Positions 15,784-53,878 of a stretch of DNA of 64,000 nt are shown piece after piece (position 1 is the stretch's first letter; every line of letters begins with the position of its first letter). A program made the translations under genes and the position numbers. The stretch lies in contig JAITKM010000007.1 of the NCBI GenBank assembly GCA_031278395.1, forward strand, positions 64,981-128,980. The letters are read 5' to 3'. The stretch is from Deltaproteobacteria bacterium (lineage in GTDB: Bacteria; Bdellovibrionota_C; UBA2361; SZUA-149; JAITKM01). A model generated the notes under the pieces. It saw only the letters and a program-made list of their open reading frames with translations. It did not search any database and was not told the DNA's origin.

Positions 15784-16911
15784 ATGGAAAAACGAGACTA
15801 CTATGAAGTGCTGGGGGTTGATCGAAGAGCTAATCTAGACACTATTAAGAATGCTTATAGAAAATTAGCTTTAAAATATCATCCGGATAAAAATCCAGGT
15901 AATAAAGCAGCCGAAGAAAAGTTTAAAGAAGCTAGCGAAGCCTATCAAGTTTTATCAACTGAAGAAACCCGTGCCCGTTATGACCGATTTGGACATGCTG
16001 GCTTAAATGGCATGGGTGGCAATAGTGGTAATTTTAGTTTTGACTTTGGCGATTTATTTGGCGATCTGTTTGGCTCTTTCTTTGGCGATCTTGGTGGACG
16101 ACCTAGAAATACCGCTGGAGTTGACTTGCAATGTAGGTTAAAAATTACGTTAGAAGAAGCAGCTTTTGGTTGTGAAAAAGAAATCTCTTATTCTAAGCCT
16201 TACCAATGTAGCGCTTGCGGTGGCAGTGGAGCAAAACAAGGAACTGAGCGAAAAACTTGCAGTAAGTGTCGTGGAGCAGGACAGGTTGCAATGCAACAAG
16301 GTTTTTTTACAGTAACTACAACTTGTGCGGCATGTTCTGGCAGAGGATTTGTGATTCCAACTCCATGCCCTGAATGTAATGCTAAAGGTCAAATAACAAA
16401 AAAAGTTAAATATAAACTCAAGGTTCCTGCTGGAATTGATCATCTGCAAAAGTTAAAAATTAGAGGTGAAGGCGGTGAAAGCCATGAAGGTGGCGCGCCA
16501 GGTAATCTTTACGTAGAAATTCAAATTGAAAAACATAAAACTTTTGCCAGAAAGGGCTGCGACATCTATAGTGTCACCCCGATTAATTATGCTAATGCTG
16601 TGTTAGGAGCTGAAATTCAGGTAGAAACTTTACATGGTAAGATCACGATTAAAATTCCACCTGGAACTCCATCAGACAAAGAATTTGTCTTGAAGTCTAA
16701 GGGAATTACAGATATTCATTCTAACCGCATTGGCGATCATCGCGTGAGGGTTGTGATCAATGTCCCTAAAGAAATTACAGAGGAACACAAAGAAGTTCTT
16801 AGTAAGCTTTTAACTATAGAAGGAACGATTAAACCTAATGAATCAAATAACAACGAATCTTACACATTTTTTGATAAAATTAAAGAACAAGTTAAAGAAC
16901 TATTCGATTAG
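15784..16911 (+). CDS. dnaJ: co-chaperone DnaJ
   Basis: J domain with the HPD motif (KYHPDKNP), a G/F-rich linker, and four CxxCxGxG zinc-finger repeats. Confidence 0.95.
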
Positions 16912-16918
16912 TCACCAT

Positions 16919-18793
16919 TTGGTATTACCAGTTTTTAGTATCTTAATACTAATCTTGCTTACTTCTTGTCCGTCGTATCAAAAACCAGCTCCGACTGTTC
17001 CAATCCCCAAACAAATTCAAAAAGAAATAACTTATTCTACTGTTACTCCACCTTGGAAGGTCTGGGAATATGAAGAAATTAAAGAGCAAGAGATAAATTA
17101 TATTGAAGCATTTGAACGTAAAGGACAATTAGAAGAAGCCTTTGAACGTTATCAACTACTAGAAAAAACAACCACTAACCAACTCACTAAAGATTTGGCT
17201 TTACTTTACAAACTAAACGTAGCTTTAAAGTTAGGTAAATCTGTCGAGGTTTTAAATGAACTAGTAGGATACGTTAAGGAGAAAAATATTGAGGAAACTA
17301 AGCTGCCCTCAAAGTTAATGTTGCTGGCGATTTATAGTTACTATCATCAGAACAAGTTAGACCAATGTTTTGCGTGGCTTAATCTCTTAGCCAAGAATAC
17401 AGAAGGAATAAATCAAAAAATGTTTTCTACGGCTCAAAAGACAGGACGAATGTTGGTTAGCACACTACCAACAGATAAATTTCAAGTTTATAAAAAACGT
17501 TGGGGTGAATTAAGTTTTTTAATACCATTCTTTAGAGAAGACGAGTATCGACGACTAAAAGATAATAAGCCTAAAGTGAACAAAATTAATTGGTTTAATT
17601 CAGCAGTCTATCAGCCGACAATTTCAGAAGAAGAGATTAAACCTGTAGAAAGTCTGCTTGAATATAAGGACAAAAAAATATCGTCATTACCTGATTTTAC
17701 AATTGCGGCAGTTTTGCCACTTACAGGAAGATATAAGGAACATGGCACGCGTGTCAGAAATGGAATTGATTTAGCGATGGAGCAGCATTTTGCTGGAACT
17801 GGACACATTCCGAGTGTGAATTATATAGATTCAGCTATTTACGATATGGAGTTAACGCGTGAGGTTAAAACTACCGACGAAGAAGGTAATGAAGTTGTGA
17901 TAATCGAGTCTATTCAAAGACCCGAATTAGAAATCCCGCTTGCAACTAAAATAATTTTAGGACCGATGGATGTTAAGGCTAATGAATTATTAGTTCAAGA
18001 ACCTCAGTTGCAAGACACGCCATTTATTAGTTTTACCAAAAAAGAAGGTATTGCAGAATTAGCGCCGGGCTGTTTTCGGCTTGGAGTCACGGCGAGTAAT
18101 CAAATCTCTGAATTAGTGGCATATGCAACTGTAGCGCTGGGTTATCAGAGTTTTAGTGTGTTTTATCCTGATAATGAAACAGGACGAGAGTTAGCGAATT
18201 TGTTTAATGCATATGTTACGGCAATGGATGGTGAGGTTGTCTCAAGCAATCCTTACAAGGTAAAAAATATTAGCAGTATGCGTTCGGCTTTTATTAAAGC
18301 TGATGGAAACCTAGGTGAGGCAGTATTTATTGCTGATGCTCCGGATGATACCAAATCGTTAATTAGTAATATCAAAAAACTTCAGCCAGAAATTGTATTT
18401 TTAGGCACTGCCTTATGGAATGATAAGGCAGTAATTTCGGCGTTAGGTTCGCAATTGGAAGGTTCGATTTTTGTTACTCCATTTTATTATTGGAGTGAGC
18501 AAGCGCGAGTTAAGGATTTTATTCAGGCGTATATTTGGAAGTATAGTAGTAAGCCTGATATTTTATCAGCCCAAGCTTACGATGCTACAAATTTAGTTCT
18601 TAATATTTTTGCCGATGATAGTTCTGCGTATCATAACTTTTTTGGCGCCTTAAAAAACGCTAAAACACTGCACGGCGTAACAGGCTTGCTGCAGATTTAT
18701 CCTAACAGGGAAATTAATCGTCGCATGACTGTTTTACAAGTTCAAGGTGGCGAAGCTCACGAAGTCATGACCAGTGGTAAGCGTCTTAGATAA
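16919..18793 (+). CDS. lipoprotein with TPR-like N-terminus and periplasmic-binding-protein type-1 C-terminal domain (LpoA/LppC-like)
   Basis: A TTG start gives MVLPVFSILILILLTSC (lipobox). The C-terminal segment FTIAAVLPLTGRYKEHGTRVRNGIDLAME resembles the LivJ/PBP1 fold used by PBP activator LpoA. The tracked ORF at 16838 overlaps dnaJ. Confidence 0.4.
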   Translation: MVLPVFSILILILLTSCPSYQKPAPTVPIPKQIQKEITYSTVTPPWKVWEYEEIKEQEINYIEAFERKGQLEEAFERYQLLEKTTTNQLTKDLALLYKLNVALKLGKSVEVLNELVGYVKEKNIEETKLPSKLMLLAIYSYYHQNKLDQCFAWLNLLAKNTEGINQKMFSTAQKTGRMLVSTLPTDKFQVYKKRWGELSFLIPFFREDEYRRLKDNKPKVNKINWFNSAVYQPTISEEEIKPVESLLEYKDKKISSLPDFTIAAVLPLTGRYKEHGTRVRNGIDLAMEQHFAGTGHIPSVNYIDSAIYDMELTREVKTTDEEGNEVVIIESIQRPELEIPLATKIILGPMDVKANELLVQEPQLQDTPFISFTKKEGIAELAPGCFRLGVTASNQISELVAYATVALGYQSFSVFYPDNETGRELANLFNAYVTAMDGEVVSSNPYKVKNISSMRSAFIKADGNLGEAVFIADAPDDTKSLISNIKKLQPEIVFLGTALWNDKAVISALGSQLEGSIFVTPFYYWSEQARVKDFIQAYIWKYSSKPDILSAQAYDATNLVLNIFADDSSAYHNFFGALKNAKTLHGVTGLLQIYPNREINRRMTVLQVQGGEAHEVMTSGKRLR

Positions 18794-18917
18794 TTAAGTA
18801 AGGGTAACTAAACACAACCTTTTTAGTTTTTCTAATATTCAAGACTTTTCTTTTTTTAACTCACTACTTCATATGTAACAACGCCTGATTTACCACTGAT
18901 AAAAGTTTCAAGCTTTT

Positions 18918-19706
18918 TTACATCTTACTAACAAAGTAAGTTTTTATCGCGCTAAAAGCAGTATCAACGTCATATACAACATCGCTACCTATAATTGGCA
19001 CAATATCTTGTCTAAATGATCCGTCCCGAATCTTATCTTCTAAATTAGTTAAATACTCCTTTGCAGAAGGAATTTTATTGTAGGCATACTCCATATACTT
19101 TTTATAGCAAATAATACAGCTATCTACGTCAAGTAACCCACTTTTTATCGCGCAATATAAATCAAATAAATCGCGCCCTTTTTTTCGTTGATACAGCGCA
19201 CGCAATTTCGTGCCAATCAGTTCATTAAAACAATATGTCTGAATTAAACAATTTCCACTATACCACTGATTCTTAATTTCAAACGGCGCTAACAGGGGTT
19301 CAAACATTGAAAAATGTTCCTGACAATTAATTTCTACTTTAAGTTTCATGACTGTTTCTGGCAAAAATGTAGTTGGAAATGTAAAAATCAAACTATTATT
19401 ATTTTCCTTTTGTTTTATCTTATGAATCTCAAGAAAAAATAATACTTCTTTTATTTTATCCAGTATTACACCAATTGGTCCGCTTGTGATTTGGACTAAA
19501 TCAATATCTTCAGAATACCTTTTTTGTGGAGAAAGAAACAATTTATGCAAAGCTGTGCCACCTCTAAAAGCTAGTTTCGTAGATAAAATTTTATCACTAA
19601 AAATAGCTTGCAAAGCACGACAAATTATTAAATCTTGTTCCACCTGATGCATATTTTTCCATGGCGCAAATTGCGTCCATTCAGTTATTGCAGCTCGTGG
19701 TATCAT
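18918..19706 (-). CDS. AbiEii/AbiGii-family nucleotidyltransferase toxin (DUF1814)
   Basis: The RGGTALHKLF...RYSEDIDL nucleotidyltransferase motif is present. It overlaps the upstream gene by 4 bp. Confidence 0.7.
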   Translation of the reverse strand: MIPRAAITEWTQFAPWKNMHQVEQDLIICRALQAIFSDKILSTKLAFRGGTALHKLFLSPQKRYSEDIDLVQITSGPIGVILDKIKEVLFFLEIHKIKQKENNNSLIFTFPTTFLPETVMKLKVEINCQEHFSMFEPLLAPFEIKNQWYSGNCLIQTYCFNELIGTKLRALYQRKKGRDLFDLYCAIKSGLLDVDSCIICYKKYMEYAYNKIPSAKEYLTNLEDKIRDGSFRQDIVPIIGSDVVYDVDTAFSAIKTYFVSKM

Positions 19707-20536
19707 ATATCTGCCTCTATTTTGTAGTTAATAATAATTTTCCATTTTGGATCTACAAAGTAAGTTTCTTTGCTGCTAACCTCCTGGCCCATTGCAACTA
19801 ATGGAATTTTTCTAAAAATTATTTTAGCCTGCTTGGATTTTTCTAATAAAACATTTGCTATGTTGTGCTCATTAAGAACGTTATCAAAAATGTATCCAAG
19901 ACGTTGAATAACAGCTACTGGAATATTATCAAAAAAATCTTTTTCTATCTTATTAAAGTCTATTTTTTCAGCTAGTTCATCTAAGACAGTTACAACGTGT
20001 AACAAACCTCCAGCTAGCTTATTGTAAAGTAATAAATCTACGGCTGTTAATTCTGGTGTGGAAACATTAATTGTTCCGCTATTCACAACTTTTTGATTTA
20101 CATATTTTTGAGGAATAATTTTTTTTTCGGCAAATTCAAGTTTTGAGCCATCTTTAACTTTAGCACGTAACTCTTTGTTGCAAACAACCATAAAAGTTTG
20201 TGGTTGTTGCTGGCTTGCACCGTATAAAGCGGCGGCGCTTAAGAGTGCAATATAATAATCAACACCAAGATACTTCATTAGCTGGTCAATGTATTCTGTG
20301 TGCGGAATGTTGCCTTCAATACCAAATTCATAAAGGACTATTGCATAAAATCCCTTCCAAACTGATTTAATTTTTCCAGATAATACAAGACGATGCAAAG
20401 TATTATGAAGATTTTGTCTTGGAGTATTTGGAAAAACCGCAAAGACCTCTTCTAGTGAAAATGTAGTTTTTCCCACTTTTGGCAATGCCTCAATCCAATA
20501 TCTAATTTTTCCAAATTGTTCTATTTTTTGCTGCAT
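19703..20536 (-). CDS. AbiEi-like antitoxin / transcriptional regulator
   Basis: Position and size immediately upstream of the DUF1814 gene. An N-terminal wHTH-like region is present. The start was moved to the internal ATG at 20536 (MQQKIEQFG...). Confidence 0.55.
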   Translation of the reverse strand: MQQKIEQFGKIRYWIEALPKVGKTTFSLEEVFAVFPNTPRQNLHNTLHRLVLSGKIKSVWKGFYAIVLYEFGIEGNIPHTEYIDQLMKYLGVDYYIALLSAAALYGASQQQPQTFMVVCNKELRAKVKDGSKLEFAEKKIIPQKYVNQKVVNSGTINVSTPELTAVDLLLYNKLAGGLLHVVTVLDELAEKIDFNKIEKDFFDNIPVAVIQRLGYIFDNVLNEHNIANVLLEKSKQAKIIFRKIPLVAMGQEVSSKETYFVDPKWKIIINYKIEADI

Positions 20537-20712
20537 AAAAAATGTTTTATAGATGATAATAATAAAAATATAGTTATTATTGCATCTGAAATACAGGATT
20601 AAACCCACTTTATTCATAATAAAAGTTGGTACAGGGTTACTTTCAGAAAGTCAAGAGTCCTCAGCACTATCTCTATAACCGTTTATTTTACTTAATTATG
20701 TAGTCTGAATTT

Positions 20713-20734
20713 TTAAACTACAGAGTGCTCAGAA
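20713..20734. repeat. intergenic repeat motif TTAAACYACAGAG..CAGA, copy 1
   Basis: ttaaactacagagtgctcagaa. The other copies are at 32315 and 53808. Confidence 0.4.
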
Positions 20735-21004
20735 TGGCAGAATGGTATAGGGTTACTTTTAGGTTGATTGGTTATTCATAATATCTTTAATAAATTAAAG
20801 ATATTATAGTTATAAATATAATGAAAAAAATAAGAAATAAAACAACTTGATATTAGCTAAAATTAATTATCAAATACATTGGATAATTATTAATAATAGT
20901 AGTAATAACCTACTGCATTTATCCTGAAAGACTTATCTTGCAAAGTATTAAAGTGAACAATAAAAATTCACTGAATTATTTAAAAACATACTGAAGTTGT
21001 TGTT

Positions 21005-23947
21005 ATGAATATATGTTGTAAATTTAGTAAAAAAGTAGTTTTTGTTTTTATTTTAGCCTTTATTCTAGTTTTAGCCTCAATAGTAGTTGCATTTATCAAA
21101 TTTAATCCAAATTATTCCAATTTCTATAAACGGACAGGCGACAATGATATTGCTAATAAACGGAATTTAGATCTTTTTTATAAATATAGCGCATCGCTAG
21201 AAAATTCAAACCTTGTAAATACCGACGCCGCAAACAATCCTGATATAGAACAAAATAACGCGTTACAAAAAAATACAAACATTGCAGATACTGATACAAA
21301 CTCTGGTAACGGTGCCGATAATGATAATACAATAGGTTCAAATAGCGATACAGGTTTAGGCTCGACTTTTAGCAAGACAGGTAATAGTGGCGACAACTAT
21401 GGCAACTCAAACAACAATGAGTTAAAAGACAATTTGGATAACGAAGACCAGCCCACCACTGCTAAGAAAAATAAACCGCCAAAAATAAACGAACAAACTC
21501 CTGCTAGAATTATAGCAAGAAGTGGTGGCGGTTATAACGGCGGAGCAGGTAGCAACGCATATTACAACGGCAATCATTTAACCAATTCATCTGGCACTAA
21601 TACTAATAACAACACTTCCAGTTGTCCTTCTTGTAATTATCGTCCTACGACACTAACTAATTTAATGGTCGGACTTACAATTCCGACAATAACTTCTAAG
21701 GGCGCGAATATCCATAATTATGCTGATTGGTTTCATAATTATAATTTACAGAATTTTGATCCGACAACTGATTCGACTGTCAAAAGTTTTATTGGCACGA
21801 CCGCAGGCTTTGAAACGACATGCGATTGGGTTCATAATGGCTATACTTCTGGTGCGATTGGATTTTGCACATTGTTTCCAACTGTTGCTGTTGTTGATTA
21901 TGGTGAACAATTCAATAAGTTGGATAAAATAAGCGAGCAATACGACGATACGTATTATTTTAATCATCTTATTTATTTAAAAAATCTTAAAGAAAACACT
22001 ACCTATTATTATCGTTATCGCGCGCTTGACAGAACAGGCAAAGTTACAACTTCGTCAGTGATGTCATTCAAAACAAAATCATTTTCTGATTTCGGCGTAA
22101 TTAAAGTTCCAGATGATTTACAACAAAAGCAAGCGCCGTATAAATTAGCTTGTGGTCAAGATAAAAAATATGTTTTGACGCAAGATATTATCGCGCAAAC
22201 GCAAGGTATTTTATTGTCAGGTCATAATTGTAATCTTGACCTCGATGGACACACAATTATATACGACGAAGGCAAACCAAAAGTTATTTCTACTTCTTGG
22301 TCTGATTATGCCTATAATAATGAAACAACAGCCGGTATTAAAGCTGAATTATGGAATTATACAAATTACGTGATTCGTAATGGTATAATTAAACAAGGTA
22401 AAAATGGTGGTAGTGGTATTAGCGGAACTGGCTTTAATCCAATTGCTCTCCAACATTCCGGCGGGCTATCTGATATACAGGGTGTAACCTTAGAATTTTA
22501 TGGCAATTCTATAAATGGTGTTATCCAAACTAATGGCAAAATTTTTTCGCATAATGTGTTGTATGACAAGGGCTGGGCAATTGATGATCGACATGCTCAA
22601 ATTAAAGCAGTTTCAAATTTTAAAACTTGTAATAAGCAAGATACTGTTTGCGCTGAAGTAGCATATAATTCTTTGCGCCGTTTTAGGCAGAGTGGATTTG
22701 CCGGCGCAGAGGGAAGTAATATTCACCACAATGAACTTTATATGGATAGTTTTGTGACGAATAGTTTTGGTATTGGTAATGCTAGTAACAGTAAGTCTGA
22801 ATATAATAAAATCTTCGGGGTTGGATATGCGCCAAATGGTTTAGGTAATGGCGGTGAAGGTTGTATCGTTTCTAATAATCTAATTTATATAAATTGCTAC
22901 GCTCCTGAACGACGCACGGATCAAAATGGTAATGATGAATACGGACGTGATTCTGCTATTTCTGGAATTCGTTATACTAATTATGGTTCAAATCCGGCGA
23001 GTAATCAAATTTATGAAAATAACACGATTGTTTTAAAAGCATATAATGGTTGTTCACAAGCGCGAGGACTATGGATAAGTAATGGAACAGATGACATGAA
23101 TAATATTATCCGTAACAATACGATTAAAGTTGAAGCCATGCCGGGAAATTTAAAAAGTGGAACGCCGCCAGACAACTATTATAATAACAATGTAAATTGG
23201 GTTCTTAGTCCAATTACAGGAACTGGTCCTACTGATTTAGATATATTTACTGATGATGGTAGCGGCATTTTAACTGCTCCAATTTATTTTTCTGAATCTA
23301 ATCGCATTTATAATAATAATATCCCATCGCCGATAATTTTTAGTAATAATCATCTTATTGGCAATGTTCAGTTAATCACGCTTGGTGAAGGCTATGGTAT
23401 TCTTGGTAATGCTTGGTTTTACAATACTAAGTTAGAAAGAATAAATCATGACGATTCGTTTTTTGCTCCAATTCGTTTGGGATTCTGGTGCTGGAATACT
23501 TTTGGTAATAGAATGGTGGACAATATTTTACTCGGTGGCATGACAGAAAATGATTTAACTCCACGATTTTTTGGCAGCACGGGCTATATGGATATACGCT
23601 ATGGAGTTTCAAAACAAATTAGTGTCTTTGATGGAAATGGCGAATCTCTTAAAAACACTGAACTGCATATTAAATTTCCTGACGGTTATTTTGATAAAGT
23701 AACTACGGACAATAATGGACGCGCTACTATCGATTGGTTGCAAATTAAACAAGTCAAAGCTGGCTCATGCCAAGATGGAACTTGCGGAGTTAGTTGTGGC
23801 GAAGGCAGTGGGCATAGTGGAACATTCCAAGGAATACCGACAAAAATTGAGTATTCGGAATTTACCATTAGCACTGCTGATGGCAAGCTGTCTGTTACAT
23901 ATCCTAAAAGTTATTTGTCTGGCTCTGGAAGGATTGATTTAAAATAG
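21005..23947 (+). CDS. large secreted or cell-surface protein with low-complexity N/G/S/T-rich region, FN3-like segment and parallel beta-helix (pectin-lyase-fold) repeats
   Basis: N-terminal signal/TM. Residues about 60-215 are Asn/Gly/Ser rich. TYYYRYRALD resembles an FN3/PAP-N-terminal motif. Repeated NNxI/NNTI beta-helix rungs occur (NNLIYINCY, NNTIVLKAYNGC, NNTIKVEAM, NNNIPSPIIFSNNHLIGN). Confidence 0.5.
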   Translation: MNICCKFSKKVVFVFILAFILVLASIVVAFIKFNPNYSNFYKRTGDNDIANKRNLDLFYKYSASLENSNLVNTDAANNPDIEQNNALQKNTNIADTDTNSGNGADNDNTIGSNSDTGLGSTFSKTGNSGDNYGNSNNNELKDNLDNEDQPTTAKKNKPPKINEQTPARIIARSGGGYNGGAGSNAYYNGNHLTNSSGTNTNNNTSSCPSCNYRPTTLTNLMVGLTIPTITSKGANIHNYADWFHNYNLQNFDPTTDSTVKSFIGTTAGFETTCDWVHNGYTSGAIGFCTLFPTVAVVDYGEQFNKLDKISEQYDDTYYFNHLIYLKNLKENTTYYYRYRALDRTGKVTTSSVMSFKTKSFSDFGVIKVPDDLQQKQAPYKLACGQDKKYVLTQDIIAQTQGILLSGHNCNLDLDGHTIIYDEGKPKVISTSWSDYAYNNETTAGIKAELWNYTNYVIRNGIIKQGKNGGSGISGTGFNPIALQHSGGLSDIQGVTLEFYGNSINGVIQTNGKIFSHNVLYDKGWAIDDRHAQIKAVSNFKTCNKQDTVCAEVAYNSLRRFRQSGFAGAEGSNIHHNELYMDSFVTNSFGIGNASNSKSEYNKIFGVGYAPNGLGNGGEGCIVSNNLIYINCYAPERRTDQNGNDEYGRDSAISGIRYTNYGSNPASNQIYENNTIVLKAYNGCSQARGLWISNGTDDMNNIIRNNTIKVEAMPGNLKSGTPPDNYYNNNVNWVLSPITGTGPTDLDIFTDDGSGILTAPIYFSESNRIYNNNIPSPIIFSNNHLIGNVQLITLGEGYGILGNAWFYNTKLERINHDDSFFAPIRLGFWCWNTFGNRMVDNILLGGMTENDLTPRFFGSTGYMDIRYGVSKQISVFDGNGESLKNTELHIKFPDGYFDKVTTDNNGRATIDWLQIKQVKAGSCQDGTCGVSCGEGSGHSGTFQGIPTKIEYSEFTISTADGKLSVTYPKSYLSGSGRIDLK

Positions 23948-24115
23948 TGAAAAAATGCAAAATGCTTTTCTTGTGTAAGCAAGTCGCGTGTCCTGAAAGT
24001 TTTATTGTTCCGCCGCAAATCATTCTTGGAAGGCTAGAATTTATGTTCTCAGCACTCAGTCAAGGATAAAAATATATGACATAGCCACAAAATTATAGTG
24101 AATTGTAGGTAGAAA

Positions 24116-24513: not shown

Positions 24514-26034
24514 TTAATTCTCACCAAGAATGATTTGCGGCGGAACAATTTCTTTAGCACGGTCAACAAAATTCTTAGCAACTGCTGGATTAGTTCCCCA
24601 ATGCACTTGGGCAATACTTAACATAATATTTGGTCCAATGCAGAAGCCACCATTATGCGCAATGATATCCCTTTTATTTTCTTTACAAGACGCAACTTCG
24701 GCTTGATCGAAAAGTTCAAAACAACACGGCACAGAGCTTTCTAATTTTAAAGACCAGCGCCCATCACGCACACCACGTAATAAGCCACCATTATGAATTA
24801 AGAAGTTATTTTGAGTGCCACGAATTGAACAAAGTGAAAAATAATCACTATCAAATTTTTCCATGAAAGCCGTAGCGACTGCTGGTATAATGCCTAAACC
24901 GTGCTGCTTTTCGCCAGCATCGATTAACTCTAACTCTTTGCAAAAATAAACACAGGCATCACCTTCGGCATAAATCATGCCGCCTTGCTCGGCAAAGGAT
25001 CTGATAGCATTGAGCATCTGCTTATTATTAAATAATTCTTTTAAATAGAGTTTTACTTGACCGCTGGGAAAGTATAAGGCGTGGCAATGTTCTGGAATTG
25101 TCGAAGCTGAAAGCGGAGAAAAACTTTTTAACTCAGCTCCACTTTGTCTTAAAATATTCAGATTATCCTGAATTACTAAATGAAAAGCTGCATCATCAGC
25201 AACACCGATACGACAACAAATTTCTTGTTGTTCTGTAGCCATTGGGTCAAAAGGAAGTGGAGAGGCAGTTCTAGCTAGTTCTAATATACCATCGATATTA
25301 ACAAAATCTTTAACTCTGGTCTGATAAGATTGGAGTTGGGGTTTAGTTATCAGACTAGGATTGATGTTGTTGAATACAGGTATTGCGTTATGTTCAAAGG
25401 GAATGCCGCCTAAATATCTAATTGAAGTTACAGAATTAATAGCTGTTTTAATTCTTTCATCTTGTTCGGCATCTTTAACTTTATTGGCAACTACACCAAT
25501 AATTCGAACTCCGGGATTATAATTACAGCAACCCAACACAAAAACTGCTACGTTTTCAGTCATTGCCGAAGCGTCAACAACTAAAATAGCTGGGGTTTGG
25601 CTAGCTTTTAGAATATCAGCATCTGACAAGCCAGAAAAAGCAGCTGGACGTTTGTCAAATAAGCCTCTTTCGCCGATTAAAAGGGTTAGTTTTGCGCCTT
25701 TACTCAGGCGGGAAAGTGAGGAAAGCATTTGAGATTTATTTAAGAGCCAGGGGTCTAAGGTGTGAGATAAACAACGAGTAATTCTTCTGTAATGTGTAGT
25801 TTCAATTAAGGAACTGTTTAATTTGGCTGTGGCGACTGGCACACCTCTTTGATTTAGTTCAGTTAGTAGTCCTAAGACAAACGAAGAAACGCCAGCGCCT
25901 TTGCTTGCGCCAACTATAGCTAGGCGGGGGGCTGTGTTTAAAAGAGATTTTCTTGTTTCTTCAACATTTATTTTTTCAGTTTTATTTCTACTAATATTAT
26001 TTTTATTTTTACTAATATTATTCATTGGCGCCAA
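24514..26034 (-). CDS. cobyrinic acid a,c-diamide synthase family protein (CbiA/CobB-like), standalone
   Basis: The N-terminal ATPase domain (RLAIVGASKGAGVSS...LDPWLL) and the C-terminal GATase-3 domain are both present. The canonical YAECGG nucleophile motif reads YAEGDAC here. Confidence 0.55.
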   Translation of the reverse strand: MAPMNNISKNKNNISRNKTEKINVEETRKSLLNTAPRLAIVGASKGAGVSSFVLGLLTELNQRGVPVATAKLNSSLIETTHYRRITRCLSHTLDPWLLNKSQMLSSLSRLSKGAKLTLLIGERGLFDKRPAAFSGLSDADILKASQTPAILVVDASAMTENVAVFVLGCCNYNPGVRIIGVVANKVKDAEQDERIKTAINSVTSIRYLGGIPFEHNAIPVFNNINPSLITKPQLQSYQTRVKDFVNIDGILELARTASPLPFDPMATEQQEICCRIGVADDAAFHLVIQDNLNILRQSGAELKSFSPLSASTIPEHCHALYFPSGQVKLYLKELFNNKQMLNAIRSFAEQGGMIYAEGDACVYFCKELELIDAGEKQHGLGIIPAVATAFMEKFDSDYFSLCSIRGTQNNFLIHNGGLLRGVRDGRWSLKLESSVPCCFELFDQAEVASCKENKRDIIAHNGGFCIGPNIMLSIAQVHWGTNPAVAKNFVDRAKEIVPPQIILGEN

Positions 26035-53807: not shown

Positions 53808-53878
53808 TTAAACCACAGAGCGCACAGAGAACAAAGAGTTTTTTATTAGAATCCTCCTCTGTACTCTCGGTAGTTTAA
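53808..53878. repeat. intergenic repeat motif copy 3 plus its imperfect inverted partner (palindromic, REP/MITE-like unit)
   Basis: ttaaaccacagagcgcacagag ... 27 nt ... ctctgtactctcggtagtttaa. Confidence 0.4.

Follow-up and report, generated by a model that had tools for sequence, protein, structure and literature searches.

Two adjacent genes on the minus strand of the window (the whole stretch of DNA analysed here, 64,000 nucleotides), at 18918-19706 (262 aa) and 19703-20536 (277 aa), very likely form an intact AbiE toxin-antitoxin/abortive-infection module, in which a COG5340 antitoxin is paired with a DUF1814/COG2253 toxin, and which was probably gained horizontally. The family membership of the pair, the folds as modelled, the conservation of the catalytic residues and the layout as an operon are established here; what is said of toxicity and its neutralisation, of the tRNA target, of phosphorylation and of phage resistance is carried over from homologues, at only about 11-17% identity to solved structures. 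The pair is an ordinary AbiE system of an already known kind, and identical proteins are already so named in NCBI, the toxin (P0001) as an AbiEii/AbiGii toxin and the antitoxin (P0127, 277 aa) as an AbiEi family antitoxin.

The preliminary description had proposed two minus-strand genes with a 4-bp overlap, and this is what the sequence holds: the stop codon of the upstream gene, abiEi, and the start codon of the downstream gene, abiEii, share the 4 nt ATGA on the coding strand (19703-19706), an arrangement that suggests translational coupling and is identical to the 4-nt overlap of S. agalactiae abiE (PMC3985639). The antitoxin gene comes first here, as it does in 75 of the 75 related loci for which upstream DNA is available; an antitoxin gene in first position with a short overlap to its toxin gene is the bicistronic layout that marks members of the family. 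As also described earlier, the pair lies between a dnaK-dnaJ-lpoA-like block on one side and a gene for a 980-aa protein on the other.

The toxin gene, abiEii (18918-19706, minus strand), encodes a 262-aa DUF1814 nucleotidyltransferase, as Pfam, PADLOC, motifs and structural model all indicate. It matches Pfam PF08843, the family suggested at the outset for AbiEii, with 101.5 bits (E 9.2e-29), well above the gathering score (cutoff 22.5), so the family assignment was right; against the PADLOC AbiEii model PDLC02294 it gives an E of 3.2e-103, with profile positions 1-260 of 260 covered. The DUF1814 motif of the type RGGTALHKLF...RYSEDIDL that had been read in the downstream gene is indeed there, as ...AFRGGTALHKLF...RYSEDIDL... 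in residues 46-70. In an alignment of 34 homologues, the invariant residues are G49, G50, R63, S65, D67, D69, E125, K167, R174, R178, D179 and D182, and all four family motifs as defined in PMC3985639 are present and invariant in the same 34 homologues: motif I (hGG) as F47-R48-G49-G50, motif II (RxS/TxDhD) as R63-Y-S65-E-D67-I-D69, motif III (KLxAaxxR) as K167-L-R-A-L-Y-Q-R174, and motif IV (+DxxD) as R178-D179-L-F-D182. Motifs I and II together are those of a Pol-beta-type nucleotidyltransferase, and in S. agalactiae AbiEii the mutation of G49, R63, D67 or D69, which carry the same residue numbers here, abolishes toxicity (PMC3985639). The invariant Ser65 precedes the first catalytic Asp by two residues and is the predicted equivalent of the phospho-acceptor position, T65 in AbiEii and S78 in MenT3 (bioRxiv 10.64898/2026.01.19.700257).

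The antitoxin gene, abiEi (19703-20536, minus strand), encodes a 277-aa antitoxin/repressor in which a winged helix at the N-terminus is followed by a C-terminal AbiEi_1 domain. Its identification as an AbiEi-type regulator stands at the level of the family, although the match is to a different Pfam entry from the one first suggested: PF13338 gave no match at E<=0.01, whereas PF09407 (AbiEi_1) matches residues 77-218 with an E of 1.7e-24 and 87.1 bits (cutoff 22.2). The PADLOC AbiEi model matches over nearly the full length (E 1.3e-76); the NCBIfam AbiEi equivalog model NF047376 scores 22.7 bits, below its cutoff of 150. The reading frame can be extended to an ATG at 20617 (304 aa), but we rejected this longer form: profiles and homologues align from residues 1-14 of the 277-aa form onwards, the added stretch is a low-complexity translation of AT-rich DNA, and the identical NCBI protein is the shorter one.

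Neither sequence alone matched PDB chains directly, with only a weak match to MenT4 (E 0.08) in a profile search, and with non-significant winged-helix hits; fold searches were therefore used instead. The toxin, whose AlphaFold model has a pLDDT of 93.4 and a pTM of 0.90, takes in this model the DUF1814 nucleotidyltransferase fold of the MenT/JHP933 structures: the top 15 Foldseek matches in the PDB include MenT3/TglT, MenT4, JHP933 and MenT1, with E from 2e-8 to 8e-4. For the antitoxin model (pLDDT 89.4), the best fold matches are Rv2827c (1zel, TM 0.64, E 2e-7) and S. agalactiae AbiEi (6y8q, E 9e-6), and its N-terminal ~55 residues match winged-helix domains.

By analogy with characterised homologues, AbiEii would be a Mg2+-dependent nucleotidyltransferase that adds nucleotides to the 3' ends of tRNAs, which would arrest translation and growth. 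AbiEi would be made first from the shared transcript; its C-terminal domain is predicted to bind the toxin and to induce auto-phosphorylation of Ser65 (the counterpart of S. agalactiae Thr65), switching the toxin off, while its N-terminal winged helix would repress the operon through repeated upstream sites, for which two 20-nt direct repeats and/or a 30-bp palindrome are the candidates here. Phage infection, or loss of the antitoxin supply, could then release the toxin in its active form and halt the cell.

The two direct repeats occupy 20627-20646 (91-110 nt upstream of the abiEi ATG; a candidate operator) and 20743-20762 (207-226 nt upstream). Reported earlier as 19-nt repeats, both are real, the first starting at 20628 and not at 20629; the 19-nt cores are GGTACAGGGTTACTTTCAG (20628-20646) and GGTATAGGGTTACTTTTAG (20744-20762), one further nucleotide at the left end of each (20627 and 20743) brings them to 20 nt with 18 of 20 positions identical, and 2 matches are observed where 0.02 are expected. 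The copies are 116 nt apart, which is about 11 helical turns. A TTGACT hexamer stands immediately upstream of the first copy on the coding strand; a simple scan for a sigma-70 promoter at the repeats gave none that was convincing. The perfect 12-bp AT palindrome placed at 20780-20805 likewise exists, but its size had been understated: it measures 30 bp (20778-20807) with arms of 14 nt (20778-20791 and 20794-20807). Across the 64-kb window no other perfect palindrome has arms of 11 nt or more, and none of 1000 shuffles produced one to match it; outside this site, the half-site shows no enrichment in the window. The window-wide motif that had been noted upstream of the pair is present between the repeats, as TTAAACYACAGAG at 20713-20725, one of 5 sites in the window where 0.22 would be expected. 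A structured RNA or a riboswitch was considered for the repeat region and dropped: there was no Rfam match even at E<=1, nor any across the whole window, and the folding z-scores were +1.2 and -0.1.

Repeated promoter sites spanning up to 131 bp are known targets of AbiEi and Rv2827c (PMC7319586). In the characterised AbiEi operators the repeats are inverted, stand close together and overlap the promoter; those here are direct, 116 nt apart and 91-226 nt from the start codon, which speaks against the operator reading. Similar two-copy repeat layouts are found upstream of abiEi in three related loci (L007, L021 and L034), and among 72 related upstream regions, palindromes in 13 and paired direct repeats in 10 beat all 30 shuffles (about 2 expected); the repeat sequence of the window itself is absent from 71 related upstream regions and is not a conserved abiE operator motif. 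We consider it more likely that the direct repeats are operator-type sites than that they are insertion scars. The palindrome may be a binding site for the abiE regulator or for a regulator of the 980-aa gene. That the repeats and the palindrome regulate only the divergently transcribed 980-aa surface-protein gene, or that the pair is a decayed and non-functional remnant, are readings that we regard as unlikely. The abiEi start codon is indeed far from the repeats, the palindrome in this divergent intergenic region is about equally near to the 980-aa gene (198 nt) and to abiEi (242 nt), and the TTAAACYACAGAG copy between the repeats faces the 980-aa gene, with two other sites of this motif also facing a gene start; against control of that gene alone, paired repeats and palindromes recur upstream of abiEi in the related loci. 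Decay is made unlikely by the two reading frames, which are full length relative to the profiles, and by the catalytic residues, which are all intact. We assign a slightly lower likelihood still to the speculation that the two direct 20-nt sites 116 bp apart and the 30-bp palindrome make up an unusual AbiE operator, at which AbiEi represses by DNA looping and/or co-regulates the 980-aa surface-protein gene; if true, this would tie a toxin-antitoxin repressor to the expression of a cell-surface (phage-receptor) protein. The non-canonical layout is in itself only a mildly useful lead, which invites comparison with the operators of S. agalactiae and Rv2827c in any work on autoregulation in the Bacteroidota-type AbiE subfamily.

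The module had also been described as a compact insertion flanked by the direct repeats, and of this only a part survives. Both repeat copies lie upstream of abiEi, with no copy on the abiEii side; the cassette is not bracketed by them, so they are not scars of an insertion. When one flank is compared with the other, the best direct match is 9 nt (200 of 300 shuffles do equally well) and the best inverted match 12 nt (13 of 300). Universal conservation of the pair at this position, named beforehand as the outcome that would speak against an insertion, was not found: 3 of 3 relatives that are readable there (L002, L003 and L005) carry no such pair after the lpoA-like gene. In these relatives the lpoA-like gene is followed by rsmB-like, lysS and surA-like genes and not by the 980-aa gene, so that an insertion between two otherwise adjacent neighbours is at most a candidate reading. 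On the left (junction 18784-18917), nucleotide homology to the closest relative, L002, stops at 18783, within the final codons of the lpoA-like gene, and a 124-nt spacer then leads to the abiEii stop codon. A metagenome scan gave no relatives of the 980-aa protein and a genome-collection scan none of the lpoA-like protein, and the right boundary of a putative insertion is thus not definable.

A discrete mobile element, with the 19-nt repeats as target-site duplication or attachment scars, would fit the statistical reality of the repeats, the lack of the pair in the three relatives, and a homology to the closest relative that stops exactly at the lpoA-like 3' end. We nonetheless hold this to be highly improbable, given that both copies (20627-20646 and 20743-20762) are on one side with no match on the abiEii side, that the flank-against-flank comparison is at chance level, that no integrase, transposase or tRNA gene was found around the pair, and that its composition is not deviant. 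No target-site duplication was found around the pair, and integration linked to a tRNA was discarded, as the window contains no tRNA or tmRNA gene. The pair has a GC content of 0.324-0.326, where the genes average 0.366 (z about -1.3), and GC3 z-scores of -1.2 to -1.8; both lie inside the spread of the neighbouring genes. The pair was found in a 'Deltaproteobacteria' metagenome-assembled genome (MAG) from a low-GC, very sparsely sampled lineage, and the nearest homologues, 47-61% identical, belong to unrelated phyla, with members in Bacteroidota, Treponema, Clostridia, Coriobacteriia and candidate phyla radiation (CPR) bacteria; the maximum identity to any other known member is 61% for the toxin and 53% for the antitoxin. 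Carriage of close relatives by phages or plasmids was looked for as well, and only two unannotated faecal 'phage' contigs (48-49% identity) and distant plasmid copies (<=45% identity, on large plasmids of Rhizobium, Agrobacterium and Legionella) came up. On this indirect evidence, we suggest that horizontal transfer probably brought the pair into a housekeeping region of the chromosome.

The same biochemistry could also serve a role other than phage defence, with the pair acting as a selfish chromosomal addiction module, which persists because its loss is toxic, or as a stress-response toxin-antitoxin system like M. tuberculosis MenAT; we see this as a real possibility, if the less probable one. 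The cassette stands alone amid housekeeping genes with no defence genes adjoining, AbiE is able to stabilise plasmids (PMC3985639) and distant relatives reside on the large Rhizobium, Agrobacterium and Legionella plasmids, while the antitoxin model is closest to Rv2827c, a MenA4-type antitoxin. S. agalactiae AbiE in E. coli protected against 0 of 32 coliphages, and a defence role is therefore not guaranteed. On the other hand, L. lactis AbiE and the related DUF1814 systems RlegTA and SanaTA confer phage resistance, and PADLOC, proposed as a check from the start, does class both proteins in its AbiE defence models; moreover, defence and addiction or stress roles are not mutually exclusive.

Beyond its correct annotation, the locus matters little: the AbiE module described here is one more intact pair, from a sparsely sampled 'Deltaproteobacteria' lineage, that illustrates the patchy, horizontally spread distribution of the family. 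The best structural matches of both proteins are the M. tuberculosis pairs Rv2827c-Rv2826c (MenA4-MenT4) and Rv1044-Rv1045 (MenA3-MenT3/TglT), with a TM of 0.64 over about 280 columns between Rv2827c (1zel) and the antitoxin, and of about 0.6 between 6y56/6j7n/6y5u and the toxin; sequence identity to these pairs is, however, only 11-15%. Rv2827c is a large antitoxin, as is the one here, and has several operator repeats across about 130 bp; in the M. tuberculosis Men systems the toxin is neutralised via phosphorylation of an active-site Ser. The AbiE of S. agalactiae and L. lactis is the founding system of type IV, a label now under revision to type VII (bioRxiv 10.64898/2026.01.19.700257). It shares with the present pair the antitoxin-first bicistron with its 4-nt overlap, the DUF1814 motifs I-IV at equal residue numbers (G49/G50, R63, D67/D69), a Ser/Thr at position 65, and an antitoxin made of a winged-helix N-terminal and an AbiEi C-terminal domain. 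The antitoxin here is larger (277 aa vs about 195 aa) and matches S. agalactiae AbiEi (6y8q) only partially, with a query-normalised TM of 0.38, and its direct repeats are 116 nt apart, whereas S. agalactiae has two 23-bp inverted repeats separated by 3 bp. Profile matches run end to end with the Bacteroidota-dominated AbiE subfamily (PADLOC PDLC02294 for the toxin; PDLC02266/02252/02282 for the antitoxin), in which relatives that share the 262-aa toxin length and the gene order occur in at least 592 species genomes; among these, the copy in this sparsely sampled 'Deltaproteobacteria' MAG is an outlier in terms of its host.

The identity of the gene pair as AbiE is solid. The 262-aa toxin encoded by abiEii (18918-19706, minus strand) matches Pfam PF08843 (AbiEii; E 9.2e-29, 101.5 bits, cutoff 22.5) and PADLOC PDLC02294 (AbiEii; E 3.2e-103, profile positions 1-260 of 260), while the 277-aa antitoxin encoded by abiEi (19703-20536, minus strand, with a possible extension back to an ATG at 20617) matches PF09407 (AbiEi_1, antitoxin C-terminal domain; E 1.7e-24) and, end to end, PADLOC PDLC02266 (AbiEi; E 1.3e-76). 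These matches bear out the AbiE assignment of the preliminary description; PF13338, which it had proposed for the antitoxin, gave no match in the Pfam search, PF09407 taking its place. In NCBIfam, the antitoxin scores far under the cutoff of the AbiEi equivalog, and the toxin has no match. Copies of both proteins with 100% identity are present at NCBI on a 302-kb contig of a 'Deltaproteobacteria bacterium' MAG, named 'nucleotidyl transferase AbiEii/AbiGii toxin family protein' and 'type IV toxin-antitoxin system AbiEi family antitoxin'. The pair is a textbook AbiE, known as such to public annotation and so nothing new as a system; 'defence or stabilisation cassette' is a reasonable, if provisional, label for the module.

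An alignment of 34 toxin homologues has invariant columns that include G49 and G50; R63, S65, E66, D67 and D69; K123 and E125; K167, R169 and R174; and R178, D179 and D182, corresponding to motifs I (hGG), II (R..DhD), III (KLxAaxxR) and IV (+DxxD), which were defined by Dy et al. and are essential for the toxicity of S. agalactiae AbiEii (PMC3985639). In that protein G49, R63, D67 and D69 carry the same residue numbers (PMC3985639), and Ser65 of our toxin occupies the place of Thr65, which is auto-phosphorylated upon AbiEi binding, the observation on which a proposal to move AbiE to type VII rests (bioRxiv 10.64898/2026.01.19.700257). Neither protein has a sequence match among PDB chains, and a toxin profile search reaches MenT4 at E 0.08 only. 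Both AlphaFold models are confident all the same. That of the toxin (pLDDT 93.4) matches the structures of MenT3/TglT, MenT4, H. pylori JHP933 and MenT1; that of the antitoxin (pLDDT 89.4) matches Rv2827c (TM 0.64, ~280 columns) and S. agalactiae AbiEi, its first ~55 residues matching winged-helix domains. Both in size and in fold, the antitoxin thus resembles Rv2827c (MenA4) more than it does the short AbiEi of streptococci.

DUF1814 toxins put pyrimidine nucleotides on tRNA 3' ends and block translation (for MenT, PMC7450476, PMC10435456); AbiEii prefers UTP over CTP on tRNAs, and Serratia AbiE perturbs tRNA levels. By homology, AbiEii would here block translation by the same addition to tRNA 3' ends, AbiEi would inactivate the toxin by inducing its auto-phosphorylation, and the winged helix of AbiEi would repress its own operon. 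The sequence features needed for all these steps appear to be present at the locus.

Relatives of the pair occur in at least 592 species genomes. Bacteroidota supply most of the nearest homologues (toxin 47-61% identity, antitoxin 30-53%), with others in Treponema, Clostridia, Coriobacteriia, Ignavibacteria, Polyangiaceae and CPR bacteria; this low identity and scattered host range fit horizontal spread. Copies on plasmid- or phage-labelled contigs are distant ones only. In related abiE loci (L006-L085) the antitoxin is the faster-diverging partner (30-51% identity to the window copy, vs 47-54% for the toxin). One metagenomic protein (P0190, 462 aa) has both PF09407 and PF08843; it is an AbiEi-AbiEii fusion or else two genes merged in calling.

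The module had been described as a compact insertion flanked by short direct repeats, and the sequence does contain the two genes with their overlap, the motifs, the repeats and the palindrome that it listed. The abiEi stop and abiEii start share an ATGA tetranucleotide, giving a 4-nt overlap. The pair is separated by 124 nt from the stop of a 651-aa lpoA/LppC-like gene (16838-18793, a periplasmic-binding lipoprotein) that comes after grpE-dnaK-dnaJ, and by 468 nt from a divergently transcribed 980-aa gene (21005-23947); within ~10 kb there are no further defence genes and no genes for an integrase, a transposase or a tRNA. The two direct repeats (20 nt each, 18/20 identical; 2 matches vs 0.02 expected) are found at 20627-20646 and 20743-20762, 91-110 and 207-226 nt upstream of the abiEi ATG. 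Both are thus on the same side of the cassette, so they do not flank it and cannot be target-site duplications; a comparison of the left flank (18760-18917) with the right (20537-21004) gave chance-level matches only, and the idea of an insertion scar is wrong.

Only five homologues of the lpoA-like protein turn up in a collection of 5.8 billion proteins, a sign that sampling of the host lineage is very sparse. One belongs to this very genome (100% identity across 21.9 kb) and the contig of another (L004) ends, leaving three readable relatives (L002, L003 and L005). All three conserve the dnaK-dnaJ-lpoA-like order and lack the AbiE pair, which is therefore not universally conserved at this position. 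In the closest, L002 (79% nucleotide identity), homology ends at 18783, within the last codons of the lpoA-like gene, whose protein tail is 10 residues longer there, and a plus-strand rsmB-like gene follows after 148 nt; lysS follows in L003 and a surA-like gene in L005. Because the 980-aa gene is not beside the lpoA-like gene in these relatives either, and a pattern-based metagenome scan found no relative of its protein, the locus is a synteny breakpoint and not demonstrably a clean insertion. As gene order past dnaK-dnaJ-lpoA-like differs in every relative, the breakpoint is a recurrent one. Base composition gives no independent support for acquisition: GC is 0.324-0.326 in the abiE genes and averages 0.366 (sd 0.031) over genes.

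An N-terminal membrane anchor and a low-complexity Asn/Gly/Ser-rich region mark the 980-aa protein, which matches Pur_ac_phosph_N below threshold only (27.4 bits, cutoff 30). Just past the stop of its gene lies one arm (24004-24029) of a 26-nt perfect inverted repeat (TTGTTCCGCCGCAAATCATTCTTGG...), the other (24524-24549) being the 3' end of a CobQ-like gene (24514-26034, minus strand); the 494 nt enclosed, with an 86-aa ORF and a Thx ribosomal protein gene, could be a segment that inverts, or the scar of an inversion. The motif TTAAACYACAGAG occurs at 20713, 32315, 51082 and 53808 (+) and 53866 (-), all intergenic (5 sites vs 0.22 expected), with a common extended context ..CTnGAaTTTTTAAACnACAGAG; three of the five face a gene that begins 121-292 nt downstream, and those at 53808 and 53866 make an inverted repeat. 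The motif may serve as a lineage-specific promoter or regulator site.

Upstream of abiEi there is also a perfect palindrome (20778-20807), present as first described but larger, its arms being 14 nt. It is the sole perfect palindrome with arms of at least 11 nt in the 64-kb window (reached in 0 of 1000 shuffles); its half-site is not enriched elsewhere in the window, and the upstream interval has no sign of structured RNA. A 12-nt perfect direct repeat, TTATTCATAATA (20610-20621 and 20772-20783), lies immediately outside the 20-nt repeats in an A-B...B-A order, its second copy overlapping the left palindrome arm; at up to 1 mismatch it has 5 matches in the window vs 1.45 expected. In sequence, the 20-nt repeats are not conserved among 72 related abiE loci. 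Over-represented in these loci are strong palindromes between roughly -50 and -10 (L083, L009, L039, L055) and long direct-repeat pairs 85-178 nt apart (L007, L021, L034), one class beating all 30 shuffles in 10 and the other in 13 of the 72, vs ~2 expected. Because Rv2827c binds four repeats over 131 bp, the most economical reading is that the repeats and palindrome are candidate sites for regulator binding within a divergent promoter region. We infer this with caution, since no clear sigma-70 promoter was found in the upstream region and the layout is unlike that of characterised AbiE operators; this non-canonical repeat and palindrome architecture is the only residual curiosity of the locus.
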